A DNA stretch of 49,576 nucleotides, taken from NCBI GenBank assembly GCA_043777275.1, contig JAYVQD010000473.1, positions 1-49,576 of the forward strand, written 5' to 3'. Numbering within the stretch: position 1 is the first letter of the stretch; each line of letters starts with the position of its first letter. Below, piece by piece: positions 1 to 28,582 of the stretch. The notes under the pieces are model-generated. The model worked only from the letters and a program-made list of their open reading frames with translations, was not told where the DNA came from and made no database searches. The position numbers and the translations under genes are program-made. The DNA is from Nitrosomonadales bacterium. Lineage in GTDB: Bacteria > Pseudomonadota > Gammaproteobacteria > Burkholderiales > SG8-41.

Positions 1-713
1 TGTTCATACGCAACGTCGCGGGCTTCACGCACGGGCCGGAGGGTGCTGACAAGGGCAGCATCGGCCAGAGTTTCCTCGTTGTGCTGGCGGAAGACGAAGA
101 CACGGTGGCCGAGCTGGGTTGGCAGCCGTACAGCGTGGATCGCGGTTTCACGTCGGGGGACAACGTAGTCACCGTGCAAAGCGTGGTGGCGATCAGCGCC
201 CCCGCGTATTCGCAAAGCGAGCACGCCGAGGAACACGCGGCGCTCTTGGCGGATGTGATCGGCGAGCGCGCCTGCGGCTACTGGACAGCGATCGGCATGT
301 GTTACGCCAACTGGCATCCGCTGATCATTCTGGGGCCGTCTATCGCAGCGGTGTTTGCCAAAGATGGCTGGAGTAAAGACGACATCCGCCAATATTTTTG
401 CGATCACGTGAAGATCAAGGCATCGACTGCCGAGCGTTACGCCTACGGCGCGGGGCTGACCGGATTTCGCATCAACAACGCGGTGAAAGAAGGACTGCTG
501 CCCAAGACCTACCACGAGTCGGATGATCCTGATCGTCTGGTGCCGGTGTTTCAGCGGCCCGAGTGGCTGAGCATCGTGGTGGCGGGCGACGCGGGCCGCA
601 ATCAGTCGCGCGGCTATGTGTGCAACCACGTGCAGGGCGTGCCGACCAGCCGCAAGGTGGTGTTGCCGAAGCACTGGGATGCGTTGCTGGAAGCATCGCG
701 CCCGATTTTGTGA
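1..713 (+). CDS. C-terminal part of a conserved hypothetical protein (5' end lies outside the window)
   Basis: The frame of ORF 81..713 stays open back to base 3 (FIRNVAGFTHGPEGADKGS...), so the gene starts upstream of the window. Third positions are G/C-rich and a hairpin terminator follows. I recognised no family by eye. Confidence 0.5.
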   Translation, partial: FIRNVAGFTHGPEGADKGSIGQSFLVVLAEDEDTVAELGWQPYSVDRGFTSGDNVVTVQSVVAISAPAYSQSEHAEEHAALLADVIGERACGYWTAIGMCYANWHPLIILGPSIAAVFAKDGWSKDDIRQYFCDHVKIKASTAERYAYGAGLTGFRINNAVKEGLLPKTYHESDDPDRLVPVFQRPEWLSIVVAGDAGRNQSRGYVCNHVQGVPTSRKVVLPKHWDALLEASRPIL

Positions 714-724
714 GAAACGCGGAC

Positions 725-755
725 AAAAAATGCGGCTTTTCGGCCGCATTTTTTA
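725..755. terminator. Bidirectional rho-independent terminator between convergent genes
   Basis: Stem ATGCGGC (730-736) pairs with GCCGCAT (743-749). It is flanked by an A-run upstream and a T-run downstream. Confidence 0.7.
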
Positions 756-777
756 TTCAATAAAAACAAATACTTAC
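753..777 (-). repeat. AT-rich motif copy a (GTAAGTATTTGTTTTTATTGAATAA on the minus strand)
   Basis: Exact 25-mer, identical to the copies at 11002..11026 and 31666..31690. It lies 5 nt 3' of the stop codon of the 782..1555 gene, in sense orientation. Confidence 0.9.
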
Positions 778-781
778 ATCG

Positions 782-1555
782 TTATTCCCACAGCCGCTCC
801 GGCAGCGGCAAACCGGCGAGGTCTTCCGGTTTCATGCGTCCGTTGGGTTCAATACCAAAGCGCTCCAGTACGGCGGTGAGTTGGCGTACGTGTTGCGCGG
901 AGTGCCAGGTGGAGCGTTCGAGCAATTGCGACATCGGCTGCACGCCGTAGTACGTGTTGACCTTCACCGTGCAGGATTTATCCGCGAGCGATTCCCACCA
1001 CTGTTGCAGATGTTCGATGGCGCTGTCGCCATACTTCGCGATCTCGGCGCCGGTCATGTAGCCGCCTTCGGTCGGCGGCACATTGGCGAGTTGCACGGCG
1101 TAATCCGCGCCGTCGCGCGCGCATTCGAGAAACGCCTCACCGATGCGGAACACGTGAAAACTCAGAAAGCGTATCGTGCGCTCGCGGTTGTCGATCACAT
1201 TGCCGGTGATTTTGTCATCGGGCATCTGGCGGATCAGGCGTTGCGCCGCGCGCAGGATGGTGGTCCAGCGCTGGATGAGTTCCGCCGGCGGCAACGGCGT
1301 GTGACCGGTGCCCTGCAAACCCACAAACTTGGCGACGTCTTCGAGGTTTTGCCCGAATACGTAGGCTTTGCCGCGGGCGACCACGGGTACATTGCGCACG
1401 CCATACGACAATAATTTTTCACGTCCACCGGCGTCGTTCAGTACATCGATGACGTCGAAATCGATATTTTTTTTCGAAAGAAACTCTTTCGTTTTGAGGC
1501 AGCTACTTCATCCCGGTTGGGTGAAGAGCACGAACTTGTCTACGACTGCGTTCAT
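782..1555 (-). CDS. Candidate selenoprotein: glutaredoxin/NrdH-like domain (U-S-S-C redox motif) fused to a DinB/YfiT-like domain
   Basis: ATG at 1555 has GGAGG 6 nt upstream. The reading MNAVVDKFVLFTQPG-[TGA 1510..1508]-SSCLKTKEFLSKKNIDFDVIDVLNDAGGREKLLSYGVRNVPVV continues in frame, with no other stop, into the 209-aa ORF 782..1411. The TGA sits at the first Cys position of a Grx-type CxxC. If the TGA is a true stop, only 782..1411 (TTG start) would be the gene. Confidence 0.55.
1475..1491 (-). promoter_or_regulatory. SECIS-like hairpin downstream of the in-frame UGA
   Basis: On the mRNA strand this is CGAAAGA-GUU-UCUUUCG, a perfect 7-bp stem with a 3-nt loop. It starts 16 nt after the UGA at 1510..1508. 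Confidence 0.4.
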
Positions 1556-1630
1556 GGCAAACCTCCAGTTGGAAAACTCATTGAGATTACTCCCGCCGTG
1601 TAAAAACGGTCAAGTTTGTTTACGACCGGC

Positions 1631-2770
1631 TTACGAACAGGATTCCTGCCGCAGGCGTATCGCTTCCGCGGCGGCGGCGGATTGCGCGATTGATTCGATG
1701 ATACCGCCGCCCAGACACACGTTGCTTTCGTAGACCACCACCGATTGACCGGGCGTAACTGCCCACTGCGGCTCGGCGAATTCAACGGCGCAGCTTTGCT
1801 GCGTGGCCGAGGCAATGACGCACGGCGCGTCTTTCTGGCGATAGCGCGTTTTCGCGCCGTAGACCCAGCCGCAATGCGGTGTTGTTCCACTAATCCAGCT
1901 CAGATTCACCGCGGTCAGCCGGTCGGAAAACAGCGAGGCATGATCGTGTCCCTGCACCACGATCAGGCGGTTGTTCGGCATATCTTTCTCGGCGACATAC
2001 CACGCATCGCCGTCGCCGTTGCGTGTGCCGCCGATGCCCAAACCCTGGCGCTGACCCAGCGTATAAAACATCAAGCCGCTGTGCTTGCCCACCCGCACGC
2101 CATCAGGCGTACAGATGTCGCCGGGATTCGCGGGAATATAACGATTCAAAAACTCACGGAACGGGCGTTCGCCGACAAAGCAGATGCCGGTTGAATCTTT
2201 TTTGTCGTGCGTCGCCAGCCCTTCGCGGCGCGCGATGTCGCGCACGGCGATCTTGGTGAGATGACCCAGCGGGCACAGCGTTTTCGACAACTGCTGCTGA
2301 TTAAGGCGATACAGAAAATAACTTTGATCCTTGCTGCCGTCGTCGGCGCGCAGCAGTTGAAACAGCCCGTCACGCTCGCGCACTTGTGCATAGTGGCCGG
2401 TGGCGATGCAGTCGGCGCCCATCGCCATCGCGTGATCGAGAAACGCCTTGAATTTGATTTCGGCGTTGCACATCACGTCGGGGTTGGGCGTGCGCCCGGC
2501 TTTGTATTCGGCGAGAAACTCGTTGAACACGCGCTCTTTGTACTCGGCGGAAAAATTCACCTGCTCGATGTCGATGCCGATCTTATCGGCGACGGAAACC
2601 GCATCGATCAAATCCTGGCGCGACGAGCAATAATCATCCGTGTCGTCGTCTTCCCAGTTTTTCATGAACAGGGCGGTGACATCGTAGCCCTGTTGTTTTA
2701 ACAGTAGCGCGGCGACCGAGGAATCCACGCCCCCGGACAGGCCGACGACGACTCTTTTTTGGGCGCTCAT
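1631..2770 (-). CDS. mnmA: tRNA 2-thiouridine(34) synthase
   Basis: N-terminal PP-loop [19 protein letters not shown], and full-length resemblance to MnmA/TrmU (379 aa). Confidence 0.95.
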
Positions 2771-2842
2771 GAGGTGGCTGCTATGGCGTGATTCGGTTGC
2801 ATGCCGCTATTCTACCGCCTGTGCGCGGCTGCAAATAAAAAA

Positions 2843-2864
2843 GGCAGGGTCTCGCGACCCTGCC
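2843..2864 (-). terminator. Rho-independent terminator of the small secreted-protein gene
   Basis: GGCAGGGTC-TCGC-GACCCTGCC hairpin, followed on the minus strand by a TTTTTTATTT run. It lies 21 nt 3' of the stop at 2885. Confidence 0.7.
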
Positions 2865-2884
2865 TCTCCAGCGAAAATACGCGA

Positions 2885-3091
2885 TTACTTCTTGTCGTCT
2901 TTCTTGTCTTCTTTTTTGGCTTCGACTTTGGCGGCTTTGTCGTCTTTCTTGGCTTCGACTTTGGCGGCTTTGTCGTCTTTCTTGGCTTCGACCTTGGCGG
3001 CTTTGTCGTCTTTCTTGTCTTGCGCGATGACCGGGGTCATGGTTGCGGCAGCAAACACAGCAGCGATCAGGGTTGCAAACAGCTTGTTCAT
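2885..3091 (-). CDS. Small secreted Lys/Asp/Ala-rich repeat protein (68 aa)
   Basis: Signal-peptide-like MNKLFATLIAAVFAAATMTPVIAQ is followed by 3 x DKAAKVEAKKD. GAGGA lies about 7 nt upstream of the ATG, and a terminator lies downstream. Confidence 0.6.
   Translation of the reverse strand: MNKLFATLIAAVFAAATMTPVIAQDKKDDKAAKVEAKKDDKAAKVEAKKDDKAAKVEAKKEDKKDDKK
2918..3016. repeat. Tandem 33-bp repeat x3 inside the small secreted-protein gene
   Basis: GGCTTCGACTTTGGCGGCTTTGTCGTCTTTCTT occurs at 2918, 2951 and 2984. The third copy has one mismatch. Confidence 0.95.
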
Positions 3092-3865: not shown

Positions 3866-5245
3866 TTACTGGCTGCCCCACGGCTTGATCGCAGCCTTGA
3901 GTTGGTTGTAGCCGTCGATGTAACGCGGACGCTTGCCCGACGAGTAAATCTTGTCGAAGGTGGCGAGTTGCGCGTCGAGCCAGGCGGCCAGTTCGGTGTT
4001 GCCCGGGTTCGCCGCTTTGTAGGCCTCGTTAATCAGCACGAAGTGAATGCGCGGATCGTACGGATCCTTGGTGCCGCCGACGGTTTCGTCGCCATTCAGC
4101 AAACGCATCAGCATGGCGTCGGCAGAGCCGAGCGTTTGCTCGTAAATCGGCGCGCCTTCCATGCGATACATCACACTGGTCATGTCCTTGCCGTTGGTCA
4201 TGGTGAAGCCCATGTCTTTCCACACCTGCTTCATGTCCTTGCCGGTTTTGGCGTGATCGAGCACCAGTTGTCCCCACGCGCGCAGCACGTCGGGCGCGTC
4301 GGCCATGAGGTCGGTCAAACGGTCGCCATCGAGGTCAGTTGCGTAAACGATGCAGCCGCGCTGATTCATCATGTCGTGCAGCAACAGGCCAAAGTTGGTG
4401 TCGGAGATGTGCTCGTAGACATCGCCGCCCCAGTTTTCCATGCCGGCCTTGAAGTCTTTCGGCAGCAGCGCGGCGATGGCATCAACGTTTTCTTTGTGTT
4501 CTTCGTAAGCGTCCACCGCGTACTGGCGCTTTAACTTGAATTTCGTGCCTTGCAGCAGCCAGCGCATGATGCCGGCGTTGACCGCGTCTTCCTTGGCTTG
4601 CGTGGGCTTGGTGGCGATACGGCCGATCTGGCCGGTGTCATGCACCAGTTTCAGGAACAGGCGCGCGGCGTAGGCCATGCGTACGCCGGGGGTGTTCATT
4701 TCGGAATGGATGTTGCCGGTGGCTTTTTCGACTACGAATTTCTTGTTGTCCTGCGAATAGGGCAGGCCGGGCATGAAGCGCACGTTGGTGATCGAGCCAT
4801 ACGGACGCACATTGCAATACACGCCGGACGCGGTGCGCAGCGGCGCATTGGCGGATTTGCCCGCGACCACCACTTTTTTGCCGCCGTCATTCACCATGAA
4901 GTCGCCCGCAGTGGACCACTTGAGGCAGGTGTAATCCATCTTGCCGAACCACTCCAGCGACTTTAACTTGGTGTCGTGACGGAACTGCGCCATCATCGGT
5001 ACGCCGAGGAACGGCAGGCCCAGCACATCCAGCGCCATCAGCGTGCCGTTCAGGGCAAAGGTGTCGGTCAACGCATGCGCCACCGGCTGCACGCCGCCCG
5101 CATTGTTGCCGCCTTCCCAGATCACCGCATCGCTGATGCTGCGCGGCTGCGTTTTGGAGCGCTTGTATATGCTGTCGAGCAGCTTGAACAAATCGCCGTC
5201 CTGTTCTTCTTTGGCGATTTTGAAAAGGTCGAGTTTTGCGGTCAT
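3866..5245 (-). CDS. Conserved hypothetical soluble protein (459 aa), family not recognised
   Basis: Start MTAKLDLFKIAKEEQ at 5245 has GGAGA upstream. Coding bias is strong throughout. The track's 553-aa version adds 94 residues of low-complexity, non-coding-looking sequence. Confidence 0.6.
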   Translation of the reverse strand: MTAKLDLFKIAKEEQDGDLFKLLDSIYKRSKTQPRSISDAVIWEGGNNAGGVQPVAHALTDTFALNGTLMALDVLGLPFLGVPMMAQFRHDTKLKSLEWFGKMDYTCLKWSTAGDFMVNDGGKKVVVAGKSANAPLRTASGVYCNVRPYGSITNVRFMPGLPYSQDNKKFVVEKATGNIHSEMNTPGVRMAYAARLFLKLVHDTGQIGRIATKPTQAKEDAVNAGIMRWLLQGTKFKLKRQYAVDAYEEHKENVDAIAALLPKDFKAGMENWGGDVYEHISDTNFGLLLHDMMNQRGCIVYATDLDGDRLTDLMADAPDVLRAWGQLVLDHAKTGKDMKQVWKDMGFTMTNGKDMTSVMYRMEGAPIYEQTLGSADAMLMRLLNGDETVGGTKDPYDPRIHFVLINEAYKAANPGNTELAAWLDAQLATFDKIYSSGKRPRYIDGYNQLKAAIKPWGSQ

Positions 5246-5401
5246 GGTGCTGGGTCTCCGGTGAAATAATTTGAAGAGGGTCTGATAACACTGTGATCGG
5301 TGGGTTGCGGCGATCGGCAGGAGCGTCCCGAAGGGTCGTTGAGGCAGGATCGTGACATTCGCCGCCTGCCGCGCTTTCCGTTGGTGCGTGGCGGCATTAT
5401 C

Positions 5402-5427
5402 GCATTTATTGGTTTTTACATAAATGC
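5402..5427. promoter_or_regulatory. Inverted repeat GCATTTAT-N10-ATAAATGC in the divergent intergenic region
   Basis: The 8-bp arms lie at 5402..5409 and 5420..5427, about 160-180 nt upstream of the 459-aa gene start. This is a possible operator. Confidence 0.3.
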
Positions 5428-5676
5428 CCTGGCGTACTGTTCGTATTGTGGTTGAAACGATGGGCGCAACCTGATATGCGTAACCAGGGTCGTAAACGGG
5501 TTTTGCGCGGGCAGTGCGACATATCACAAGGGAAAATGCGTCCAGGAATTCACAAACTCACTTCGCTTTGTGAGGCATAGTTCACGGCGAGTCGTGAGGC
5601 GATCCGTATATATTGTATGCTAGCGATTCAAACTTTTGAAACCAAGCTGCAGCCGGCAACTGATGAGTAACCAAAA

Positions 5677-11485: not shown

Positions 11486-14407
11486 TCAGGTGGCCTCTGC
11501 GCACAACACCTTAACGATGTTGGGATGATGCTTCACCCAGGCCGACGCGGAAAGGTAGCCGAGTTTGCGATAACTTTCGAACTGCGCTTCGTCGAACCAC
11601 TGATCGGAGGTGGGGTCCTGCGGGAATTTGGGGTTGATGCGCGCGTAGGAGTCAATCTCCGCCGGCTCACTGTCGGTGAGTACCGGCTTGAGATACACCA
11701 GAATGCCCGGCGTTGCGTTTTTGTTATCGGGATCATAATGAATTTTACCAATGGCAAATTGCCGTTGGGCCCGGCCATTGGGGCCTGCGCGCAACGGCGC
11801 CACATCAATCTCGATTTCGACGTTGAAATCCACGTAGCAGCGGCGAATCGCGTTGGCGAGATCGGCGAATTCCCACCTCGGATCCGCCCCGGCGTCGGTC
11901 ACCACAATGACGCGGCAGCGCCGCCGTATCAACTCGTAAATCGCCAGATTCTCAAAATGCCCGCCGTCGCTCAGGTAGACGAAATCCGAATCGAGACTTG
12001 ACGATCCGGTGACCTCCTGCAAAAGATAAAACAGATTCGGCTTGGGATCCCGCCGATGCCACGCGCGCCCGCACGGATTGCCCACCCACGCACCCAGACG
12101 AAAATTCGCCACCGCGAGCAGGAACGCCGTTGCCCGCGAGCCATAAAATCCCATCTTGGGGCTGGCTGCGGCGCAAGACACCGCCATCGCGCGTCCGAGG
12201 CTGATGCCGCCTGGCTCGTCTGCGGCGGCATAGGCGCTGGTACGCCGGAACGCTTCACCGCGCGCACCAGGTCCTGCGGCATAGCCACAGTAATTGGGTG
12301 TGAAAACGAAGGATACCGCCTTGCGGCCCGCGCCAATCTGCCCGGACAAATCTTCGACGTTGAGCGCTGCATTGATAATCGGGTAGGGCCGATGGTCCAG
12401 TTGGGCCATCGGCAAATCGTCGCCCGCCATATCCGCAAAAAATCCGATCTTGCGCCGGTGAGCCGAGCGCACTCGCAGGTAGCAGCGCGTGATGCGTTCC
12501 TGATAAGCGTGATGCAGTGAAAATAAATTAACTTTGAGCTGACTGCCCAGATACAGCAATGCAAGCGCCAATGCCGCCGCAATGGCGAGCGACATCAGCA
12601 GATAGTCTCCCCACTGCGTCGGCCAAATATCCTCGATTGCCCACGGATTGGGCCATGCGAAGTTTGTGCTTAGCGGGAAGAAGGAATACCAGATCAAGGC
12701 CTCACTGTTGGTGAGCCTTCCGCCATGGTCACTGAGTGCGCCACAGCACCACACTGAAAAGCGGGATATCGCGTCCGGGATTCCCATGGATTTGCTCACG
12801 CCGTAAAGCTGCACGAACCATTCCCTGAATAGCCATGAAGCGCCGAGCAACAGGCCGATCATGAAAATGTAAGGGGCACTTTGCGCCAGGAGTCGGCGCA
12901 GCCGTTCCGCTATCGCGCTTTGCGCCGTGCCGGCGCGTGCCGCGAACACGCCGCCTACAGTACCGGCGAGCCAGGACGGAAGCGCTACGTGTGTGGAGAT
13001 CAACGCTTCGAACACGCTCGGGCCGTTGATCGCCAAACCGAAAAATACCAGCCACGCCAGAATCGCGAGGTTGAAACCCCCGCCCATACGGCTCCACCAT
13101 GCGTGCTCTTCGGCGCTGAGCGAACGGCCGCGCAGCCCGATCCACACGGTTTGCGCAATCAAACATTGAATGACAATCAGTGGCGTACCCAGCCACACCA
13201 GCATCCACGGATTGCCGAGTTGGTACGAATTTTCGAGCAACGGGACGGTGGATGTCAGCATGGCGGCGAGCAGGAGACTGCTCGCCACGAGTGCGCCAAG
13301 CCGCACCGGTGAACTGCCCTGGACGCCCGCGACCGCGCTGCGCGCAAAGTAAATGGTGAGGGGAATCAGCACGAACAGTGCCAGGCCATAGGTCGTGGCC
13401 TCGGCCCAGGTGTGGCCGCTTCCGGTGAGCGCGAATATGGCGGCGACGGTGCTTGCCAGCAACATGAACACCACACAAAACAAACGCGGGTCAACGATTA
13501 GAATATAACCGAATACCGTGACCGCGACCGCGATTTGCGTAGTGCCCAGCCCCACGGCCGTATCCGCAGCAGTCCAAAGCGCGAGACACACCAGCGCATT
13601 GCACACCAACATGGTCAGTGGCAACACTATCACATAATAATGCGTATTTTGCGCGTCAACTTTAGACAATGGCCAGCACGCGCCCGAACCTCGTGCCGCA
13701 TTTAACGCGCGCCCCGAAATCAGTGCGAGCAAGCCTATTCCCACGACAGCGCCCGCGATGCTCCACAACGGGTTCGGTTGTAACGACCACATGCCGACGC
13801 CGCCCCAGACCAACGCCTGCACCACCGCCATGGCCAGAAACAGCGCCAACAGGATGGTGATCAGGTTGAGCAGCAGGTTGCGCACAAAGGTGGAAACGAA
13901 GCTGGAAATGTCGAGATTGAGTGTCTTGAAACTGGGGAATACCGAACTGGACCAGTCGCGCACGAAGCGCACAGCATCGTCTTCTTTTGTTTTGTTTGCG
14001 ATGCGCGCCGCGACACGCTCCGTGGCAGTGGAATCGCCTTCCGCTTGATTGCGTTCCTCACGAATTTGCGCCGCGAGCCAGCCACCGGTGAAACCGCCGC
14101 CGGAGACCGTGGACAGATAGTCGAACTTCGTCAGCAGTCCATGCTCCGCCAGCGCTTGTGCAACACCCAGTGCGTAGCTGCCGCTACGTGTGCCGCCACC
14201 GGAAAACGCCAGAGCGGTCAAGGATGCTTCGGTCGCGCGTTGCGCGCTGGACGGGGGCGTAGCGTTCGTAGAGGCCGCAGGCGCCGCGCAGGGCGAACCC
14301 CGCAGCAAAGCAATTTCTTCGGACAACACTTGATCGAAGGCAACGCAAGGAGCATCGTCGGGCAGCCGGCCGAGTAGCTTGTCCCAAAGTTTACGTATGA
14401 ATCCCAT
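11486..14407 (-). CDS. Patatin-like phospholipase whose catalytic domain is split by a large polytopic membrane insertion (973 aa)
   Basis: Oxyanion motif SGGGTRS at about aa 69-75 and nucleophile elbow STVSGGG with Ser at about aa 102 (14104..14102). About a dozen hydrophobic helices span roughly aa 160-640. The catalytic Asp motif SDGGHFENL has Asp at about aa 814 (11968..11966). Confidence 0.8.
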   Translation of the reverse strand: MGFIRKLWDKLLGRLPDDAPCVAFDQVLSEEIALLRGSPCAAPAASTNATPPSSAQRATEASLTALAFSGGGTRSGSYALGVAQALAEHGLLTKFDYLSTVSGGGFTGGWLAAQIREERNQAEGDSTATERVAARIANKTKEDDAVRFVRDWSSSVFPSFKTLNLDISSFVSTFVRNLLLNLITILLALFLAMAVVQALVWGGVGMWSLQPNPLWSIAGAVVGIGLLALISGRALNAARGSGACWPLSKVDAQNTHYYVIVLPLTMLVCNALVCLALWTAADTAVGLGTTQIAVAVTVFGYILIVDPRLFCVVFMLLASTVAAIFALTGSGHTWAEATTYGLALFVLIPLTIYFARSAVAGVQGSSPVRLGALVASSLLLAAMLTSTVPLLENSYQLGNPWMLVWLGTPLIVIQCLIAQTVWIGLRGRSLSAEEHAWWSRMGGGFNLAILAWLVFFGLAINGPSVFEALISTHVALPSWLAGTVGGVFAARAGTAQSAIAERLRRLLAQSAPYIFMIGLLLGASWLFREWFVQLYGVSKSMGIPDAISRFSVWCCGALSDHGGRLTNSEALIWYSFFPLSTNFAWPNPWAIEDIWPTQWGDYLLMSLAIAAALALALLYLGSQLKVNLFSLHHAYQERITRCYLRVRSAHRRKIGFFADMAGDDLPMAQLDHRPYPIINAALNVEDLSGQIGAGRKAVSFVFTPNYCGYAAGPGARGEAFRRTSAYAAADEPGGISLGRAMAVSCAAASPKMGFYGSRATAFLLAVANFRLGAWVGNPCGRAWHRRDPKPNLFYLLQEVTGSSSLDSDFVYLSDGGHFENLAIYELIRRRCRVIVVTDAGADPRWEFADLANAIRRCYVDFNVEIEIDVAPLRAGPNGRAQRQFAIGKIHYDPDNKNATPGILVYLKPVLTDSEPAEIDSYARINPKFPQDPTSDQWFDEAQFESYRKLGYLSASAWVKHHPNIVKVLCAEAT

Positions 14408-20437: not shown

Positions 20438-21205
20438 TTACTTTGTAACCTTATGTTTATAAAAAGAAATATCCCCGTAGTGCGCTATAACCGATTCGCC
20501 GGTGTTGTCGGTATCGGTGGCGATGGCGACGGCTAAGACGGGTGGCGCATCCTCGCCGAATGCCGCCTTGAAATCCGCTGCCACATCGCGCTCCACTGCC
20601 AGCCATTGATTAACGCGGGAGGCGCCGCTTTCGACGACGATCATGCGCACGCGATCGGTATAGCGGCTGGCGACAATAGTGCCAGCGGGCGCTTTGCCGT
20701 CCCACACATAGCACAGCGTTGCGGTGGGAATGTTCGGATCGTACAGCGCGCGCGCCAGGCGAATTTTGCTGCGCTCGACGAAGGATAATTTTTCCAGCGG
20801 ATAGTCGAACATCACGTACACGCGCGCCGGATAGTCGTCGCCTTCTTTTAAACGGATGTCGCTGGCTTTTAGAATGTTGGCGATTTTCCAGCGCCATTTG
20901 AGGATGGGGAATTCAGCGGGGTTCACTTTCATGTTGCGGCTGAGTCCCGACGCGGCTGCCGTGGATTCGGCACGCAGCACGGTGGTGCCGCCATCGTCCA
21001 CCAGCGTATAGCGCGTGGGGTTTTTCGCGCTGGATACGCCCAGCGGCTTCCAGGTTTGCGGCAGGGCGGCGCCCGCTTGCAGCGCGGAGAAGGCCGCCAC
21101 GACAACCACGACCGTCGCGGTGTCAGATTGCGACAGCGCAGCCGCTGCCATGCCCGTGGCCGCGAGCGCACAGAGAAACCGGTTACGCCAGCGTTTTATT
21201 TTCAT
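20438..21205 (-). CDS. DUF3047-like secreted protein
   Basis: Start MKIKRWRNRFLCALAATGMAAAA (signal peptide) at 21205. The conserved body (FPILKWRWKI, DDYPARVYVMFD, LCYVWD) is typical of DUF3047. It overlaps the upstream gene's end by 23 nt. Confidence 0.7.
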   Translation of the reverse strand: MKIKRWRNRFLCALAATGMAAAALSQSDTATVVVVVAAFSALQAGAALPQTWKPLGVSSAKNPTRYTLVDDGGTTVLRAESTAAASGLSRNMKVNPAEFPILKWRWKIANILKASDIRLKEGDDYPARVYVMFDYPLEKLSFVERSKIRLARALYDPNIPTATLCYVWDGKAPAGTIVASRYTDRVRMIVVESGASRVNQWLAVERDVAADFKAAFGEDAPPVLAVAIATDTDNTGESVIAHYGDISFYKHKVTK

Positions 21206-21842
21206 TGAGAATGATGTGTTCCGACCAGCGCCGGTAGTCTTCGGGGCGGTCAATGTCCCATAGCGTTTCCAGTTCGTGCCAGCGCCAACCCAGTGTGTGC
21301 AGCCGCGCGCGCGTGGCGGCGAGCACGCTGTCGCCGCCCCACGCCATGCCGTCGAACACGCGCGCGTCGCATTGCGTCAGACCGATCAGCGCATAGCCGC
21401 CGTCTTCGGCGGGGATCAGCACCGCGTCGTTGCCTTGCGTCAATGCACTTTGCGCCTCGCGCAGATGTTGCACGGTCAGCACTGGACAATCGGCGCCGAT
21501 GAGAATCACGCGCGCGTGGCGTGCCAGCCCGTCCTCGAACGCGTGACACATGCGTGCGCCCAGATCGCGGCCTTGCTGCGGCGCCAGCGCCACGCCGTAG
21601 CGGCGGCCGCAGTCACGCAAAAACGCATCGTTGGTATCGGGCGCGCAGTGCAGTTCAACAGGGCCGAGCCCGGCATCGGTGGCGGTGACCAGCGCGCGAT
21701 GCAGCAACTGGCCGTGCAGCGCCGCCGCGCCCTCGGCGCCGAGTGCGGGTATCAAGCGCGTCTTCACCGCGCCCGCGCGCGGCGCTTTGGCGAAGACGAT
21801 GGTCAGCGCGTCACAGCTTGTGGATGACATGGTGTACGACAT
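21183..21842 (-). CDS. DUF2064 / TIGR04282-type transferase ('transferase 1, rSAM/selenodomain-associated')
   Basis: LTIVFAKAPRAGAVKTRL, VILIGADCP and IPAEDGGYALIG motifs of the CofC-like nucleotidyltransferase fold. Confidence 0.8.
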   Translation of the reverse strand: MSYTMSSTSCDALTIVFAKAPRAGAVKTRLIPALGAEGAAALHGQLLHRALVTATDAGLGPVELHCAPDTNDAFLRDCGRRYGVALAPQQGRDLGARMCHAFEDGLARHARVILIGADCPVLTVQHLREAQSALTQGNDAVLIPAEDGGYALIGLTQCDARVFDGMAWGGDSVLAATRARLHTLGWRWHELETLWDIDRPEDYRRWSEHIILNENKTLA

Positions 21843-22506
21843 AGCGCTCGGCCAGTGTATTCGGGTCTGCGCCCAGCCAGTACTGGAAACGCAGCCGCCA
21901 CATCAAAAAAATCGTGCGCCACACCCCGTGTTTTTCCCAGCGCCGCCCGGACGTGATGATGCGGTGACGCAGCGCCAGCGGCTTGCCGAACGCTTTCAAT
22001 TTTTTGGTGAGCGCCACGTCTTCCATCAGCGCGATTTCCGGATAGCGGCCTGCCGCCTCGAACAGCGAGCGCGTGACGAACAGGCCCTGGTCGCCCGTCG
22101 CAACACCGGTCAAACGTGAGCGCAAATTCATCATCGTGGCGATAACACGCAGCAGCGGATGTGTGCCGGTTACGGTGACATCAAAGCGGCCCCAAGTCTT
22201 GCGCGCGCGATTGAGGCCATCGACGATGATGCCGTCCGCCGCGGGCGGTAGCCGCGAGTCGGCGTGCAAAAACAGCAACAGATCGCCGCGCGCCTGTGCC
22301 GCACCGGCGTTCATCTGAAGCGCGCGGCCACGCGGCGCGCTGATAATCTGATCGGCCAGCGGGCGCGCGATGTCTATCGTGGCATCGGTGCTGCCGCCAT
22401 CCACCACCACGATTTCCACGCCACGCGTGCGCAGCGGCGCCAGCGCCTGCAGCGATTCGGCGAACCCTTCAGCTTCGTTCAGGCAGGGGATGATGACCGA
22501 TAGCAC
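21811..22506 (-). CDS. Family-2 glycosyltransferase, TIGR04283 type ('transferase 2, rSAM/selenodomain-associated')
   Basis: MLSVIIPCLNEAE, VVDGGSTD and LFLHADSRLP are GT2 signature segments. It overlaps the TIGR04282 gene. Confidence 0.85.
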   Translation of the reverse strand: MLSVIIPCLNEAEGFAESLQALAPLRTRGVEIVVVDGGSTDATIDIARPLADQIISAPRGRALQMNAGAAQARGDLLLFLHADSRLPPAADGIIVDGLNRARKTWGRFDVTVTGTHPLLRVIATMMNLRSRLTGVATGDQGLFVTRSLFEAAGRYPEIALMEDVALTKKLKAFGKPLALRHRIITSGRRWEKHGVWRTIFLMWRLRFQYWLGADPNTLAERYVVHHVIHKL

Positions 22507-22512
22507 ACGCGG

Positions 22513-23328
22513 TTACTTTTTGGCGTCGTTAAGGCCCCAATCATAATCCAGATGCCTGATCTCGGCCTTGCCATCACGGATGATTTTTTGGTGCTCGGCG
22601 TTGTCGGTGAGCAGGTTCGCGTATTTGGCGAAGAATTGCTCGCGCGACTTGATGCCTTTCAATCCGCTGGTGAAATCCACCGAATACCACTTGAAGATTT
22701 CGGACACTTCCAGAGCGTTGCTGGCGGCGTTGTAACGGTTACGCGTCTTGTCGGACAGGGCGCGCACCACTTGTTCTTCGAGCTGCGCGTCGAGCTTGTC
22801 GGCGACAAAGGCTTCTTCACGCAGCATCGGGCAGCCGATCGAGGCACAGTTCACCGCCATGTGGATGCGCGGGTCGTCGTAGACGCCTTTGGCACGAATG
22901 GTGTCGTGCTCGATGTTGTCGAGCGAAAATTCGCGGCCAAACAGCTTGAAGAATTTATCTTTGAACGGGTTGCCGATCAGCTTGCCGTAATCCCACACCG
23001 ATTTGATGTTGGGGTAACGCAGCAGAATTTTCTCGACCATGTGCGCGTTGTAGGCGTTAAGCAAAAAAGCGAGCTGCTGATTTTTGCTCCAGCTTTTGAA
23101 GTCGGCCTCGCTGACTTTAGAGAGCGTTTCAAGATACGTTTTCAGTGCTGCGCGATCCTTGGCGATTTCCGCGTAGCGCACTTGCGACGCCTTGCCGCTG
23201 TCAATTACCACCGTGTGTTTTTTCAGCAGTCCGCTCCATGCGGCGTGCGAGTGATCGAACTGCGCCCACGCGGAAACGGCTGTGAGCAGCCATAGCGAAA
23301 GTATTGTAACTATTTGTTTTTTAATCAT
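22513..23328 (-). CDS. DUF547 domain protein with signal peptide
   Basis: LLNAYNAHMVEKIL, SLDNIEHDTIR and RIHMAVNCASIGCP are typical DUF547 blocks. N-terminus is MIKKQIVTILSLWLLTAVSAWA. Confidence 0.75.
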   Translation of the reverse strand: MIKKQIVTILSLWLLTAVSAWAQFDHSHAAWSGLLKKHTVVIDSGKASQVRYAEIAKDRAALKTYLETLSKVSEADFKSWSKNQQLAFLLNAYNAHMVEKILLRYPNIKSVWDYGKLIGNPFKDKFFKLFGREFSLDNIEHDTIRAKGVYDDPRIHMAVNCASIGCPMLREEAFVADKLDAQLEEQVVRALSDKTRNRYNAASNALEVSEIFKWYSVDFTSGLKGIKSREQFFAKYANLLTDNAEHQKIIRDGKAEIRHLDYDWGLNDAKK

Positions 23329-23330
23329 TT
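23306..23330 (+). repeat. AT-rich motif copy e (GTAACTATTTGTTTTTTAATCATTT)
   Basis: It overlaps the start codon and first 7 codons (MIKKQIVT) of the DUF547 gene, and lies 14 nt from the stop of the upstream gene. Confidence 0.7.
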
Positions 23331-23343
23331 TATTCTCATCTGC

Positions 23344-25554
23344 TTAGTGATGTTCTGCCGCTGGCGCGGCCTTGGTACCTTGGCCTATCAACCCTAACGC
23401 AGCACCGGCCACCGTGCCGACACTGCCTGCGCCGCGCCGCCAGTGGTTAAACGCTTCGGCAAAACGCAGTTGCTGCTCGGTGGTCTGTGCTTTTTTCCAC
23501 ACCCCTGCCGCGTATTTGTTGGCCTCGCCCAGCGTCGGATAAATATGGATGGTGCCGAGTATCTTGTTCAAGCCAAAACCGTGTTTCATCGCTGCGACGT
23601 ATTCGACCAGCAAGTCGCCGGCGTGTTCCCCAGCGATGGTGACGCCGAGTATTTTGTCGCTGCCCGGCGGTGTAATCACTTTTACCAAGCCATGCGCTTC
23701 GCCATCGGCGATGGCGCGGTCGAGATCGTCGATGCCGTAGGTGTACACCTCGTGCGGAATGTTCTTTTCTTTGGCCTCGGTTTCGTTCAGCCCCACGCGC
23801 GCGACTTCGGGGTCGGTAAACGTACACCACGGTACCACCGAGTAATCGACCTTGAATTTTTTGAAGCTGCCAAACAGCGCATTCACCGCGCAGAACCACG
23901 CCATGTGCGCGGCGGTATGCGTGAATTGGTAGGGCCCGGCCACGTCACCGCAGGCGAAAATATTCGGGTAGAGGGTTTCCAGATACTCGTTGACCTCGAC
24001 CACGCGCGTTGCCGGAATGCCGAGCGCCTCAAGGCCGTAGCCTGTGAGATTGGCGACACGGCCCACCGCACACAGGATTTCGTCGAAAGCGATGCGCGTC
24101 TCGGCGCCGTTGTTTTCGACGACCAGAAACTTCTCGCCGTTTTCAATCACCACTTGCCTGGCCTTGTGATTGACCAGTAAGTTGACGCCTTCGGCCTGAA
24201 AGCGCTTCATCACCAGATCGGAGACGTCCGGGTCTTCGCGAATCAATAGGCGCGGCAGCATTTCCACTTGCGTGACCTGCGAACCAAAGCGCGCAAAACA
24301 TTGCGTCAGCTCGGAACCGATCGGGCCGCCGCCCAGCACCACCAGGCGCTTGGGCAGCTTGCGCAGATTCCACACGTTATCGGAGGTCAGCGGATTCGCT
24401 TCCGCCAGGCCCGGAATCGGCGGGATGAACGGGTGTGCGCCAGCGGCGATGACGATGTTTTTGGTGGTGAAGGTTTTTTCGCCGTCAGCGGTTTTGACTT
24501 TCACTTCCCACGGCGACACGATTTGCGCTTCGCCGTGCACGCATTCCACCCCCAGGCTGGTATAGCGCTCGGCGGAATCATGCGGCTCGATATCCTTCAC
24601 GATGCGTTGCACACGCTCCATCACCTCGGCGAAATCAAATTCCGCGCTGGCCGAGCGGATGCCGAATTCCTGCGAGCGTTTCATGTGCGATAACAACTTC
24701 GCCGAGCGGATCAGCGCTTTCGACGGCACACAGCCGGTGTTCAAACAATCGCCGCCCAATTTGTGTTTTTCAATCAACGTGACCTTGGCTTTGACCGCCG
24801 CCGCGATGTACGAGGTAACCAGGCCCGCCGAGCCGCCGCCGATCACCACCACGTTGCGATCATACGACGCAGGGCGCGGCCATTTTGCGTAGACCTTGCG
24901 CGCCTTCAACGCATCGAGAAATTTTTTCGCGATCAACGGAAAAAGGCCGAGCAGCACGAAGGCGGAAATCAAACCCGCGCCGATTTTGAATTCGCCGAGC
25001 TGGGTGCCGGCGTAGACGAACACCAGGGTGCCTGCCAGCATGCCGATCTGGCTCACCCAGTAGAACGTCACCGCTTTGAGGGTGGTCAACCCCATCACCA
25101 GATTCACCATGAAAAACGGAAACGCCGGTACCAGCCGCAGCGCGAACAGATAAAACGCGCCTTCTTTCACCACGCCGTCGTTGATCGGTTTTAACTTGTC
25201 GCCGAACTTGCCCTGCACCCAATCGCGCAGCAAAAAGCGCGAGGTGATAAACGCCAGCGTCGCGCCGATACTGGAGGCAAACGACACCAGTACCGTGCCC
25301 CACAATAGGCCGAAAATCGCGCCGCCCGCCAGCGTCATGATCGCTGCGCCGGGCAGTGACAGGCCCGTGACCACGACGTAAAGCACAAAATAAATCAGCG
25401 CCGCCTGCGCCCAGTTTGCCTGCACGTACGCGGCGATCTCGGTCTGTTTCGACAGGAAAAACTCTTTGGTCAGGAAGTGGTGACCACCCAGCGCGAAGAA
25501 CGCCGCGATAGACGCAGCGATGAGGATGAAGACCAGCAGCTTGTTGCGGTTCAT
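23344..25554 (-). CDS. Fusion of a TVP38/TMEM64 (DedA-type) membrane domain with a pyridine nucleotide-disulfide oxidoreductase (mercuric reductase / dihydrolipoamide dehydrogenase-like)
   Basis: The N-terminal ~220 aa are hydrophobic and DedA-like (LSLPGAAIMTLAGGAIFG). They are followed by VVVIGGGSAGL, the redox centre GGDCLNTGCVPSK and the dimerisation-domain HIYPTLGE. Confidence 0.85.
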   Translation of the reverse strand: MNRNKLLVFILIAASIAAFFALGGHHFLTKEFFLSKQTEIAAYVQANWAQAALIYFVLYVVVTGLSLPGAAIMTLAGGAIFGLLWGTVLVSFASSIGATLAFITSRFLLRDWVQGKFGDKLKPINDGVVKEGAFYLFALRLVPAFPFFMVNLVMGLTTLKAVTFYWVSQIGMLAGTLVFVYAGTQLGEFKIGAGLISAFVLLGLFPLIAKKFLDALKARKVYAKWPRPASYDRNVVVIGGGSAGLVTSYIAAAVKAKVTLIEKHKLGGDCLNTGCVPSKALIRSAKLLSHMKRSQEFGIRSASAEFDFAEVMERVQRIVKDIEPHDSAERYTSLGVECVHGEAQIVSPWEVKVKTADGEKTFTTKNIVIAAGAHPFIPPIPGLAEANPLTSDNVWNLRKLPKRLVVLGGGPIGSELTQCFARFGSQVTQVEMLPRLLIREDPDVSDLVMKRFQAEGVNLLVNHKARQVVIENGEKFLVVENNGAETRIAFDEILCAVGRVANLTGYGLEALGIPATRVVEVNEYLETLYPNIFACGDVAGPYQFTHTAAHMAWFCAVNALFGSFKKFKVDYSVVPWCTFTDPEVARVGLNETEAKEKNIPHEVYTYGIDDLDRAIADGEAHGLVKVITPPGSDKILGVTIAGEHAGDLLVEYVAAMKHGFGLNKILGTIHIYPTLGEANKYAAGVWKKAQTTEQQLRFAEAFNHWRRGAGSVGTVAGAALGLIGQGTKAAPAAEHH

Positions 25555-25621
25555 GGGTGTTTCCTGGCTAGTTTCATCTGGGTCGTGCCAAACGCGCGCA
25601 ACTTACGGTCGCGGGCCGCAC

Positions 25622-26596
25622 TCAGCAGCAACCGCCGCCGTCATAGAAGTAAGTCGAGCCGGTGATGTGGATGTCCTGCCGTCCGAGTGCCGCCAGAGCG
25701 CCGGCGGTTTTGTCGCACACCGCGAGCGGCTGGTTCTGCGTCAGGCAGTGCCCCTTGTTGTCGTCAAAAGAATCGCCGTCACCAAAGTAGATCGCGGTTT
25801 TTCCTGTGAACACGCACGGGCCGTCGGCAGGCATGGGGTCTTTGATGGCGCAGATTTCGACGCTCTCGACAAAAATCACCTGAGCGGTGGGGTAGTGGCG
25901 CGGCGACAGAATACGGTAGGGCCGCTTGGCGCGCACCTCGATGGTGCCGAAACCGACATCGGTCAGGCGCTTGATATAGGCCGCCAGCGGTATCGCGCCG
26001 GTCAGACACAGCGCGCGCAGGCGATCGTCGTTTTTAAGGTTGGCGGGCATTGGTGTTTCGCACACGGGGTCGGACAGTATCAGGCGGCCGTGGGGCTTTA
26101 ACACGCGGTACATTTCACCGAGGGCGCGCTGCAAATCGTCGTCGTGAAAAATATTGAACAAACAATTTTGCGCTGCGACATCAATGCTGCCGCCGGCAAT
26201 CGGCAGGTTCAGTGCGTCACCTTTGCGCAGATCAATAAAGTTTGATTTGAACCACGGATTTTGCTGTTCGGCCTCGCGCAGATTGTCGCCACAGGCCGCG
26301 ATCATTTCATCGACCACATCCATGCCGATGACGCTGCCGGCATGGCGCGAGAAGTAGGCAAATTGCAGCAGCTCCATACCCCCGCCGACGCCGACATACA
26401 GCACAGTGGGGTTGCCGGCGAGATCGCGCGGATGCACGGTGCTGCCGCAGCCGTAGTTCATGGCCAGCATTTTTTTCGGGATCGCCAGTTCGGGGAGTTG
26501 CCACACCGGTGTGGTGGTGCAACACAGTCCCTCCTGCGGTTTCAATGCGGCTTCTTTGTAGACGTCGCGGGTGGTGGCGTGATAGGAGTCGTCCAT
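25622..26596 (-). CDS. arsM: ArsM-like SAM-dependent (arsenite) methyltransferase
   Basis: Cys pairs (GLCCTT, NYGCGS), SAM motif VLYVGVGGGMEL, and a C-terminal domain ending GGGCC. It sits directly downstream of arsS. Confidence 0.8.
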   Translation of the reverse strand: MDDSYHATTRDVYKEAALKPQEGLCCTTTPVWQLPELAIPKKMLAMNYGCGSTVHPRDLAGNPTVLYVGVGGGMELLQFAYFSRHAGSVIGMDVVDEMIAACGDNLREAEQQNPWFKSNFIDLRKGDALNLPIAGGSIDVAAQNCLFNIFHDDDLQRALGEMYRVLKPHGRLILSDPVCETPMPANLKNDDRLRALCLTGAIPLAAYIKRLTDVGFGTIEVRAKRPYRILSPRHYPTAQVIFVESVEICAIKDPMPADGPCVFTGKTAIYFGDGDSFDDNKGHCLTQNQPLAVCDKTAGALAALGRQDIHITGSTYFYDGGGCC

Positions 26597-26633
26597 GTTT
26601 GTTATGCGCTATTAAAGAGGTTCGTAAATCAGA

Positions 26634-27599
26634 TTAGGCGGCCAGCGCGCCGCCGCAACTGGAGCCCTGGCCCGCAGTGCAGCCGTAGCAATGGTCTTTG
26701 ACCACGATCGGATTGTCCGCGAGTTCCACGCCCATCAATTCGCGCAAGTGCGTGCGCGGTTTATTTTTCCACGCCAGCGGCAGGCCAAGCATCTGATTAA
26801 AGTCGCAATCGTAGACGTAGCCTTTCCAATCCACCGACAGCAGCGACTTGCACATCAGCGAATCCAGGTTTTGCGGCTGATAGGCGTTTTTCAGCAGATC
26901 CATGTAATGCGTGAACTCGCCTTTGGAAATCAGCGTGCTGCCGAAGCGCTGTATCGGCATATTGGTGATGACATAAAGTTCGGTAAATTCAATGCCGAAG
27001 TGTTCGCCTAAATGTTTGCGGTAATCGCTTTGCAGCGGGCCTTGCGCAGGCGGCAGCACCGCCCCTTGCGGGTTGTAGACCAGACTCAACTTGAGCGGCG
27101 ATCCGGCCTTGCCGTAGCCTTTTTCATTCAGCAGTTGCAGTGCGCGGATGCTGGCATCGAACACGCCTTTGCCGCGCTGGCGATCGACGTTTTCTTCGAG
27201 GTAGCAGGGCAATGACGCCACGATTTCAACGGCGTTGCCGTGCAGAAAATCCGCTAAATCTTCTTGTCCCGGCTCATGCAATATCGTGAGGTTGCAGCGA
27301 TCGATCACCTGCACGCCGATGTCGCGCGCGGCTTTGACCAGCAGGCGAAAGTGCGGATTCAATTCCGGCGCGCCGCCGGTCAGATCGAGTGTGGTGATGC
27401 CCGTGGCCTTGAGAAACGCGATGACCTCGAATACGGTCTCGCGGCTCATCGCCTCGGTGCGCGTGGGGCCCGCGTTCACATGACAGTGCAAACAACTTTG
27501 ATTGCACTTGTAGCCGAGATTGACTTGCAGCGTGTCTACGCGGTTGCGGCGTATCGCGGGAAAGTCGCTGACTTCCATACGCGGCAGGGTGGCGTGCAT
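26634..27599 (-). CDS. arsS: Radical SAM/Cys-rich protein ArsS (TIGR04167 type)
   Basis: CNQSCLHCH radical-SAM cluster motif and a C-terminal Cys-rich tail DHCYGCTAGQGSSCGGAL. Length 321 aa. Confidence 0.9.
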   Translation of the reverse strand: MHATLPRMEVSDFPAIRRNRVDTLQVNLGYKCNQSCLHCHVNAGPTRTEAMSRETVFEVIAFLKATGITTLDLTGGAPELNPHFRLLVKAARDIGVQVIDRCNLTILHEPGQEDLADFLHGNAVEIVASLPCYLEENVDRQRGKGVFDASIRALQLLNEKGYGKAGSPLKLSLVYNPQGAVLPPAQGPLQSDYRKHLGEHFGIEFTELYVITNMPIQRFGSTLISKGEFTHYMDLLKNAYQPQNLDSLMCKSLLSVDWKGYVYDCDFNQMLGLPLAWKNKPRTHLRELMGVELADNPIVVKDHCYGCTAGQGSSCGGALAA

Positions 27600-27740: not shown

Positions 27741-28574
27741 TTATCGGCGTCGCGTGACGCTCATGCGGTTGAACGCGCCTGCGTGCAACAGCGCGGCCAT
27801 CAGTTGTTGCAAATCGGCGCCGTGTTGTGCCGCCAACGCGTCGCGTGCGGCTTCCGCCAGCGTGCCGCCGTTGGCGCAGCGGTCGAGAAACGCGCAGCCT
27901 GCAGCGTCCAGCGCGACCCACTCGACAGTGCCGCGCGGCCGCGTGAGTAGCGCGCCCTCGCCATCGCCCGCGTGATCGTACTCAATTTGCCGCGCCGGCT
28001 GCCAAGCCTCGTCATTCTTGCGTTCAGCGGCACGATGGTGTGCCCAGATGCTGAATACCGGTGCGTCCGTAAACCATGCCCAACGCGCCGCAGCATGCGG
28101 GTATAGCACGGCGGTGGCGAGTTTGGCCGGCGCGAGATTCGCGATCACGGCGGCGTCGAGCGGGGTTTCGTCGCGTGCGGTGTGCGCCTCGGTCCACAGC
28201 CGGTCCAGGCGCGCGACCCCGGCCACATACGGCAGCGATGCCGCCGGCTGGGCATGCGGCAGATAGCGCGAGAGAAACGCGGCAAATAACTCGCCGTAGT
28301 TAAGCAATGAGGGATCCTCGGGCGGCGATTCACGCACGTAGATCGCGGCGGCGGCGCGAAACCATTCGTCGCCGGTGAGCCGCGCCACTGCGGGATAGTT
28401 CGCCTGCAGCGCGTCGATGCAGCTTTTCATCACGGTATTGCGGTACACCGCGAAGCCGGGTTGCGACGCGAGCGCGGCGACGGTGCCCGATACGGGGGCA
28501 TTGTGGTGGGGCGGCGCCCATAGCGCTTGCGCAAAGGCGGTCTGAAAACCAGCAAGTGTTTTCTGTGTCTGCAT
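27741..28574 (-). CDS. bufC: DUF2063 protein (partner of the DUF692 MNIO enzyme; BufC-like)
   Basis: FAVYRNTVMKSCIDALQANYPAVARLTGDEWF and NYGELFAAFL are typical of the DUF2063 N-terminal domain. It lies 8 nt downstream of the DUF692 gene. Confidence 0.8.
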   Translation of the reverse strand: MQTQKTLAGFQTAFAQALWAPPHHNAPVSGTVAALASQPGFAVYRNTVMKSCIDALQANYPAVARLTGDEWFRAAAAIYVRESPPEDPSLLNYGELFAAFLSRYLPHAQPAASLPYVAGVARLDRLWTEAHTARDETPLDAAVIANLAPAKLATAVLYPHAAARWAWFTDAPVFSIWAHHRAAERKNDEAWQPARQIEYDHAGDGEGALLTRPRGTVEWVALDAAGCAFLDRCANGGTLAEAARDALAAQHGADLQQLMAALLHAGAFNRMSVTRRR

Positions 28575-28582
28575 GGTGTGGT

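Follow-up and report, generated by a model that had tools for sequence, protein, structure and literature searches.

Near the left edge of a 49,576-nucleotide stretch of DNA from a Nitrosomonadales bacterium (contig JAYVQD010000473.1 of assembly GCA_043777275.1; the whole stretch is referred to here as the window), a gene for a glutaredoxin-like redox domain joined to a DinB-like domain is interrupted by TGA, at the place where the first cysteine of a CxxC motif would be expected. On the minus strand, an ATG at 1555..1553 opens a frame in which codon 16 is TGA (1510..1508) and no further stop occurs until the TAA at 784..782, giving 257 sense codons with the TGA included (Table 1). A preliminary description, made from the letters alone, had pointed to this ATG with GGAGG 6 nt upstream, to the in-frame TGA and to the continuation into a DinB-like open reading frame (ORF). 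These coordinates and the open frame as far as the TAA were verified. TGA also serves as an ordinary terminator in the window, where 13 of 34 confident genes end in it, and a scan of the window for other ORFs with a single TGA interruption and for UGSC motifs gave nothing convincing besides this gene. Before comparative data are considered, these features could be those of a pseudogene. The locus raises two questions: (i) how the UGA is read and (ii) what the encoded protein does. Regarding the first, we conclude from comparisons with related sequences that positions 782..1555 are very probably a genuine selenocysteine (Sec)-encoding gene whose product is a 257-residue selenoprotein, referred to here as Grx(Sec)-DinB.

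The glutaredoxin (Grx) domain extends across the TGA. When Cys was substituted for the stop codon in domain scans of the window protein, the Pfam glutaredoxin model (PF00462) matched residues 9-60 (E=8.5e-13; 48.7 bits versus a cutoff of 22.9), and U16-S-S-C19 and the cis-Pro VP motif N55-V56-P57 are conserved. The DinB_2 model matched residues 103-226 with E=5e-5 and 24.1 bits, slightly below the gathering cutoff of 24.8; a precomputed PF12867 match is present on many homologues. With the segment after the TGA as query, exhaustive searching by HMMER returned 813 representatives, many of which are 247-276 aa long with an intact N-terminus. Two expectations could be checked on these proteins, that homologues carry Cys in the TGA column and that the fusion is conserved. 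Full-length homologues keep both domains, and the TGA column is Cys in 33 of 33 of them, in the context ...WQPG-C-[ST]SCL[RK]TKEFL.... C19, R214, W217, H218, H222, R224, and Q225 are invariant in this set, and H134 is nearly so. The Cys codon is TGC in 77 and TGT in 2 of the 79 Cys-form genes. A profile search added 2,586 matches, mostly of about 257 aa, which are labelled 'glutaredoxin', 'DinB family protein' or 'NrdH-redoxin' and many of which come from Burkholderiales metagenome-assembled genomes (MAGs). The Grx-DinB fusion is thus genuine as a family and widely distributed, and the TGA forms are a subset of it.

When one genome was scanned for each species, at least 224 genomes contained a relative. 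The 80 best loci, all from Betaproteobacteria/Burkholderiales MAGs and with tblastn alignments mostly covering residues 1-257, were analysed as the Sec-form set. The stop recurs in frame at the corresponding column of all 80, without exception as TGA, within F.LFTQPG(stop)SSCL[RK].KEFLS. Over the eight codons before the TGA, the residues F, L, F, T, Q, P, and G are kept at 93-100%, with a synonymous entropy of 0.4-1.9 bits. The amino acids are kept while synonymous sites vary, and the region is therefore translated in this frame; the preliminary description had allowed that the upstream codons might prove unconserved or decayed, and they are neither. In identity clustering, the TGA forms make up one tight cluster with at least 64% mutual identity (range 64-92%) and at most 54% identity to any Cys form. 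TGA also occupies this column in two distant lineages, about 41% identical, whose genes are called as truncated proteins (L175, MSIQLFYQPG(stop)TSCIKVKEYLSQ; L176, ...LFLQPG(stop)SSCLRTKEFLSS).

A lone in-frame stop is the usual signature of a pseudogene, and Cys-form homologues with TGC exist, so that the TGA might be a disabling mutation, or a miscalled TGC or TGT, in a Cys-type gene. However, a sequencing or assembly error or a decayed gene would have to recur in 80 of 80 independently assembled species-level genomes, in both distant lineages and in thousands of truncated metagenomic calls. Purifying selection is evident on both sides of the TGA, with no other stops or frameshifts, and the identities among the loci exclude a single contaminant. 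The conservation of the TGA, the translated upstream region, and the use of TGA as an ordinary stop in the window together therefore exclude a pseudogene, an assembly error, and codon reassignment; we give pseudogenization or error essentially no credence.

Is the real gene, then, simply shorter? A search of 5.8 billion proteins returned 4,099 relatives at E≤1e-5, and the best 120 of these are all 205-238 aa long, with varied starts beyond the CxxC column. Some of the best 120 begin at an ATG immediately after that column (MRAKEFL...). Product names in GenBank are 'DinB family protein', 'glutaredoxin domain-containing protein' or 'hypothetical'. These gene calls, and the existence of downstream alternative start codons, would fit a truncated DinB protein that starts at 1411 or at the equivalent of 1444, with the upstream 15 codons a leader peptide or non-coding. 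However, the called starts differ among relatives (205, 209, 220, 223, 227, and 238 aa), as caller artefacts do, which suggests that gene callers were halted by an upstream feature. The shorter product would open partway through the Grx fold, without the first strand and the active site, yet the Grx domain is conserved and significant across the TGA and Cys-form homologues are translated as a single protein of 250-276 aa. Furthermore, the GTG used as a start in relatives reads GTA in the window. We consider a truncated gene highly improbable. The suspicion that automated calling shortens the gene was thus well placed, both in these database entries and in the mechanical ORF list, which opens the gene only at the TTG at 1411.

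Following the UGA is the perfect 7-bp hairpin that the preliminary description had proposed as a Sec insertion sequence (SECIS) element; it is present as described and is fixed in TGA forms only. Structure prediction gives it as the dominant fold, and it occurs only once in the window (0.12 chance matches expected); its loop places G-U at +27/+28 when the U of UGA is numbered 1. Codons +6..+11 have a synonymous entropy of 0 in the 80 TGA forms, reading (G/A)CG AAA GAG TTT CTT TCG with one TCA exception; the codons flanking them are variable. The third-position bases in the stem (G3, A6, U12, U15, and G18 of the 18-mer) all have as partners second-position bases that the amino acid dictates, and the observed codon is therefore the only one that preserves the structure. 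The third position in the loop is always G (GAG, never GAA). These codons are AT-rich, against the genome preference for TTC, CTC/CTG, and AAG. The same TKEFL peptide in the 79 Cys-form genes is encoded by ACC AAG GAG/GAA TTC CTC ACC, from which only 2-3 of the 7 pairs are possible.

The distant lineages retain the element. L175 has U:A in place of the basal C:G pair, with both sides changed (Val GUG and Ser UCA), and a GUA loop; in L176 the stem has one extra A:U pair. Counted over the alignment, 6 pairs are invariant and 2 are changed on both sides, and 92.5% of cells are paired in the hairpin register versus 29-70% in slid registers. The pattern at synonymous sites indicates that the hairpin is held by selection in UGA-containing members only, and its significance derives from these comparative data, not from its folding energy. 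A bacterial SECIS element is described as a stem-loop shortly after the UGA, with a small apical loop that contains G (PMC1088965). Here, a stem of 7-8 bp lies 16 nt after the UGA and carries a GUU or GUA loop.

The machinery for Sec insertion is encoded next to the gene in its relatives. We probed related loci, fetched with 3 kb of flanking DNA, using E. coli SelA and SelB, and identified selA in at least 47 and selB in at least 34 of the 80 Sec-form loci, in every case on the strand of Grx-DinB and downstream of it. The selA alignment begins 135-454 nt after the Grx-DinB stop in about 25 loci. Several loci lack a selA match because a flank longer than 3 kb is needed; in L005/L089, selA is 3.1 kb away. 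The annotations are supported by NCBIfam equivalogs (selA, TIGR00474, 597 bits versus a cutoff of 268; selB, TIGR00475, 430 versus 242). Contig L083, from another strain, is 98.6% identical to window positions 1..3021, and its Grx-DinB product is identical over its called 220 residues. It runs 5.6 kb past the left edge of the window, where a convergent UGSC-family gene with an in-frame TGA is followed by selA and selB. A tRNA-Sec gene was predicted by ARAGORN after selB in two further loci, L084 and L088, and in L088 was confirmed by Rfam (RF01852, 74.5 bits versus 47). The 20-kb neighbourhoods of two other lineages have the order mnmA, in some cases a YibF-like glutathione S-transferase (GST) gene, grxU-dinB, convergent TctC and UGSC(TGA) genes, and then selA, selB, a 301-aa TrxB-like gene, tRNA-Sec, and more TctC and UGSC genes.

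Cys forms have different neighbours. MnmA is encoded upstream and on the same strand in 73 of the 80 Sec-form loci and in none of the 80 Cys-form loci; for other neighbours the counts are 47 and 0 for SelA, 34 and 0 for SelB, and 49 and 0 for the YibF-like GST. TctC occurs beside both (34 of 80 Sec-form, 45 of 80 Cys-form), and MmgE/PrpD accompanies Cys forms only (0 of 80 versus 16 of 80). The linkage to sel genes is specific to Sec forms.

Several observations weigh against decoding of the UGA as Sec. The hairpin is short and A/U-rich, has a triloop and no bulged U, and its folding energy is unremarkable (z=-0.5 versus shuffles). Covariation is confined to 2 pairs in 2 sequences; it is scarce because most stem partners are constrained by the amino acid. 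The SECIS loop of E. coli fdhF has G23/U24, and the loop G-U here is 4 nt, about one codon, farther from the UGA. The UGSC gene on the same contigs has a different-looking hairpin, CCCGC-CGUGUU-GCGGG, after a 12-nt spacer; its loop likewise ends in G-U-U. Rfam, searched at a permissive threshold on 1400..1600, returned only chance-level matches and no fitting model. The window itself contains no tRNA, no Rfam match, and no selA, selB or selD among approximately 45 ORFs scanned with Pfam, and a SelD probe found no selD in the window or in any fetched locus DNA. The search for Sec-decoding genes that the preliminary description had suggested thus succeeded for selA, selB, and tRNA-Sec in relatives, and not for selD. 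As for function, the cooperation of the domains and the choice of reductase that are proposed below draw on gene neighbourhood and fold analogy.

The UGA might instead be read or used without Sec: by near-cognate read-through (inserting Trp or Cys) that the hairpin promotes, or as a regulatory stop that responds to selenium, with the balance of termination and read-through tuning the downstream selA-selB. The hairpin is small and atypical beside the E. coli fdhF SECIS, and the gene's position directly upstream of selA in about 25 loci makes regulatory coupling conceivable. Nevertheless, the UGA falls exactly at the catalytic Cys of CxxC, where only Sec or Cys is functional; selA, selB, and tRNA-Sec are adjacent in relatives; the same island contains a TGA-bearing gene of UGSC, another known selenoprotein family; and other genes in the window end in TGA in the ordinary way. 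Any regulatory side-effect would add to Sec insertion and not replace it. We regard a non-Sec route as improbable, and insertion of Sec remains by far the best account of the UGA.

Besides the sel genes, the island encodes other proteins. In L083, 3846..5606 (-) encodes an approximately 586-aa UGSC protein (PF24696) with the in-frame TGA in ...AVISAIGA(stop)GACTPAVL..., which annotators divide into ORFs of 109 and 470 aa; further split UGSC genes, often beside TctC, recur in relatives' islands. The GST gene lies between mnmA and Grx(Sec)-DinB in the 49 loci that have it (for example, L084 9085..9696 (-)) and is absent from the window's clade. The island GST is a full-length homologue of E. coli YibF (L081 6348..6956 (-)), with 37% identity (E=1e-44), and yibF adjoins selA-selB in E. 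coli K-12. That the linkage of GST and selAB is conserved in different classes is a hint that the GST takes part in selenium handling. The TrxB-like gene between selB and tRNA-Sec (L084 17504..18409 (+); L088 17456..18367 (+)) scores 263 bits with TIGR01292, below cutoff, and has a CADC redox motif. By analogy, it is a candidate dedicated reductase for the island selenoproteins. The 2-thiouridine (s2U) made by MnmA, a tRNA 2-thiouridylase, is the substrate for 2-selenouridine formation, and the position of mnmA beside the Sec genes may not be accidental.

In Cys-form operons (L092-L094), Grx-DinB comes first and is followed by an aminotransferase or TctC, MmgE/PrpD, an ADP-forming acyl-CoA ligase, an NAD-binding dehydrogenase, and an acyl-CoA dehydrogenase, and one 721-aa protein (P0208) is a natural MmgE/PrpD-Grx-DinB fusion. 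These arrangements point to organic-acid chemistry for the Cys forms, a link that may not be transferable to the Sec clade.

Regarding the second question, a structure model was made with AlphaFold (AF2) from the closest Cys form, not from the U-containing window protein (pLDDT 93.9, pTM 0.90). In this model a thioredoxin fold of the order β-α-β-α-β-β-α leads into a helical bundle that includes a small β-hairpin. For the N-terminal domain, profile searches gave cGrx1 (7c10, E=1e-16) and NrdH (1h75, E=4.5e-12), and further matches are the NrdH-redoxins 4hs1 and 4fiw and TIGR02194 (E=1.6e-9). In Foldseek this domain superposes on cGrx1 and BC3987 with template-modelling (TM) scores of 0.87-0.90 (approximately 0.87 for cGrx1). 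The nearest solved relative found for this domain is thus the dithiol cGrx1, and the glutaredoxin/NrdH fold that had been recognized from the letters around the TGA is borne out. For the C-terminal domain, Foldseek identified 1rxq (YfiT/BstA), 6iz2 (DR0053), 2p1a, and 3gor, with probability 1.0 and TMt 0.67-0.81; its C-terminal motif is GLPLPERLWE. Window residues H134, H218, and H222 align with the histidines of the DinB family. In BstA, H67, H160, and H164 are putative metal ligands, and the three His are the only fully conserved residues across metal-dependent bacillithiol transferases of the DinB/YfiT type (PMC5815605). Foldseek and profile searches found no solved structure carrying both domains. 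NCBIfam matches are sub-threshold only (YruB, 41.3 bits versus 88.6; NrdH, 37.8 versus 85.8; Uxx_star, 35.4 versus 66), which places the window protein outside every NCBIfam selenoprotein family.

A mechanism can be proposed from these features. At UGA16, SelB-GTP-Sec-tRNA(Sec) bound to the hairpin loop would deliver Sec in place of termination. U16 and C19 would then alternate between a selenol/thiol pair and a selenenylsulfide, re-reduced probably by the island's TrxB-like reductase, whose gene separates selB from selC, or by glutathione. NrdH-type redoxins use thioredoxin reductase; glutathione is suggested as the alternative because of the YibF-like GST next door. The redox domain may act as a built-in nucleophile or reductant for the fused DinB domain of metal-dependent thiol-transferase type, and the thiol dependence of such a partner may provide the biochemical rationale for the fusion. 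We propose this specific redox-relay role tentatively, with somewhat less than even confidence.

Alternatively, Grx(Sec)-DinB could be a dedicated component of selenium metabolism, for example an enzyme that handles selenium-thiol adducts, or one that recycles or delivers selenium, with the YibF-like GST and the TrxB-like reductase feeding SelD/SelA. In this role it would maintain the Sec trait in a large soil and groundwater Burkholderiales clade in place of FdhA. Such a function would explain why the Sec form alone heads selA-selB-trxB'-selC beside mnmA and why Cys forms are in MmgE/PrpD operons. We consider it rather unlikely.

How does this selenoprotein compare with known systems? A 2026 review lists 119 prokaryotic selenoprotein families and subfamilies, including Sec-glutaredoxin (PF00462, UxxC) and UGSC proteins, and contains nothing with a DinB domain. 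Sec-containing glutaredoxin is experimentally verified according to the same inventory (Kim et al. 2011). Grx(Sec)-DinB resembles it in fold, in Pfam family, in having Sec first in UxxC with Cys in homologues, and in the in-ORF hairpin after the UGA with G in the apical loop. Unlike Sec-glutaredoxin, the Grx part here is the N-terminal module of a 257-aa protein fused to DinB/YfiT, its motif is U-S-S-C, and genes of this type come from Betaproteobacteria/Burkholderiales and are linked to selAB. NrdH-redoxins are similar in sequence and fold, and the TrxB-like reductase gene of the island adds to the likeness; however, Grx(Sec)-DinB is far below the NrdH cutoff, has no nrdEF context, is fused to DinB, and has Sec in place of Cys.

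With the DinB/YfiT (STL) thiol S-transferases (BstA/YfiT 1rxq, DR0053 6iz2, mycothiol-dependent maleylpyruvate isomerase, and the N-terminal domains of EgtB/OvsA), the window protein shares a four-helix bundle and three His at the metal-ligand positions. It differs in its low identity (12-17%), its sub-gathering Pfam score, and its fused Sec redoxin domain. Canonical GST/CLIC proteins likewise have an N-terminal thioredoxin-fold thiol domain packed on a helical domain and give weak whole-chain Foldseek matches, but the helical part here is the DinB His-triad bundle and the root-mean-square deviation is 11-18 Å, so that the likeness is one of analogy, not homology.

The genomic setting has a precedent in the selA-selB-selC clusters with neighbouring fdhA in Alpha-, Beta-, and Gammaproteobacteria (Zhang et al. 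2006), in which the Sec machinery is also grouped with a client selenoprotein gene. The clients here are instead Grx(Sec)-DinB and UGSC; a TrxB-like gene separates selB from selC, and a YibF-like GST is often present. Full-text literature searches found no description of a Grx-DinB selenoprotein family, and NCBIfam 20.0 has no model for the Grx(Sec)-DinB architecture. A selenoprotein family absent from earlier catalogues is well supported, and both its fusion partner and its sel-island setting are unusual. Recoding here follows the standard mechanism, as does the thioredoxin-fold chemistry of UxxC, and in this respect a known phenomenon is extended.

In 2006, FdhA was the sole selenoprotein family recorded in Betaproteobacteria (Zhang et al. 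2006), to which this gene adds a family and architecture, together with a sel island built around clients other than FdhA. Grx(Sec)-DinB would also be the first Sec-containing member among DinB/YfiT thiol transferases, providing a handle on the function of the Grx-DinB family. In databases, a widespread protein is systematically mis-annotated, with truncation dropping the active site in the best 120 of the 4,099 matches, and a dedicated hidden Markov model with a Sec exception would correct such entries. The compact 7-bp triloop element, which overlaps the conserved KEFLS peptide, is a natural SECIS that is possibly useful for engineering.

Table 1. Positions of the Grx(Sec)-DinB gene, its parts, and the genes beside it in the window
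Feature	Coordinates	Strand	Remarks
Grx(Sec)-DinB gene	782..1555	-	257 codons, M1...U16...E257; TAA at 782..784
Shine-Dalgarno sequence GGAGG	1562..1566	-	6 nt 5' of the ATG at 1553..1555
TGA, codon 16	1508..1510	-	predicted Sec; first residue of the U-S-S-C redox motif
Cys19	1499..1501	-	resolving residue of UxxC; invariant family-wide
SECIS-like hairpin CGAAAGA-GUU-UCUUUCG	1475..1491	-	7 bp; 16 nt (1507..1492) after the UGA
N-terminal glutaredoxin/NrdH-like thioredoxin-fold domain	1319..1534	-	approximately residues 8-79; PF00462, profile and fold matches
C-terminal DinB/YfiT (STL) four-helix-bundle domain	785..1294	-	approximately residues 88-257; DinB_2, Foldseek
His triad in the DinB/YfiT domain	H134 1154..1156; H218 902..904; H222 890..892	-	
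mnmA (tRNA 2-thiouridylase)	1631..2770	-	Pfam; directly upstream of Grx(Sec)-DinB, same strand
UGSC-family gene, C-terminal 236 codons	3..713	+	convergent; its TGA and selA-selB lie just past coordinate 1, as seen in L083

Upstream of mnmA, a small ORF at 2885..3091 (-) has a signal-peptide-like N-terminus and tandem KKDDKAAKVEA repeats. The repeats align at shifted offsets between the window and L083, which suggests that their copy number varies between strains. The 553-aa protein encoded at 3866..5527 (-) has no Pfam match and is conserved beside the island in close relatives (8 loci).

Farther along the window, at 20438..27599 (-), a co-directional block encodes DUF3047, DUF2064, a family-2 glycosyltransferase, DUF547, a fusion of a VTT domain with a pyridine-nucleotide-disulfide oxidoreductase, a methyltransferase, and a radical S-adenosylmethionine (SAM)/DUF3641 protein. 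The preliminary description had taken this last gene as a hint of Sec use. A gene of this kind is present, at 26634..27599 (-), and its C-terminus reads ...GQGSSCGGALAA and then TAA. It is thus a Cys form, and we rejected it as a sign of Sec use.

A pair of the type that modifies ribosomally synthesized and post-translationally modified peptides, an MbnB/TglH/ChrH-family enzyme and its DUF2063 partner, is encoded at 27741..29422 (-). Divergent from it, at 29950..31139 (+), are genes for an extracytoplasmic function (ECF) sigma factor and an NrsF anti-sigma factor, followed by DUF302. The window also encodes a 973-aa protein at 11486..14407 (-), in which the only domain assigned is an N-terminal patatin domain.

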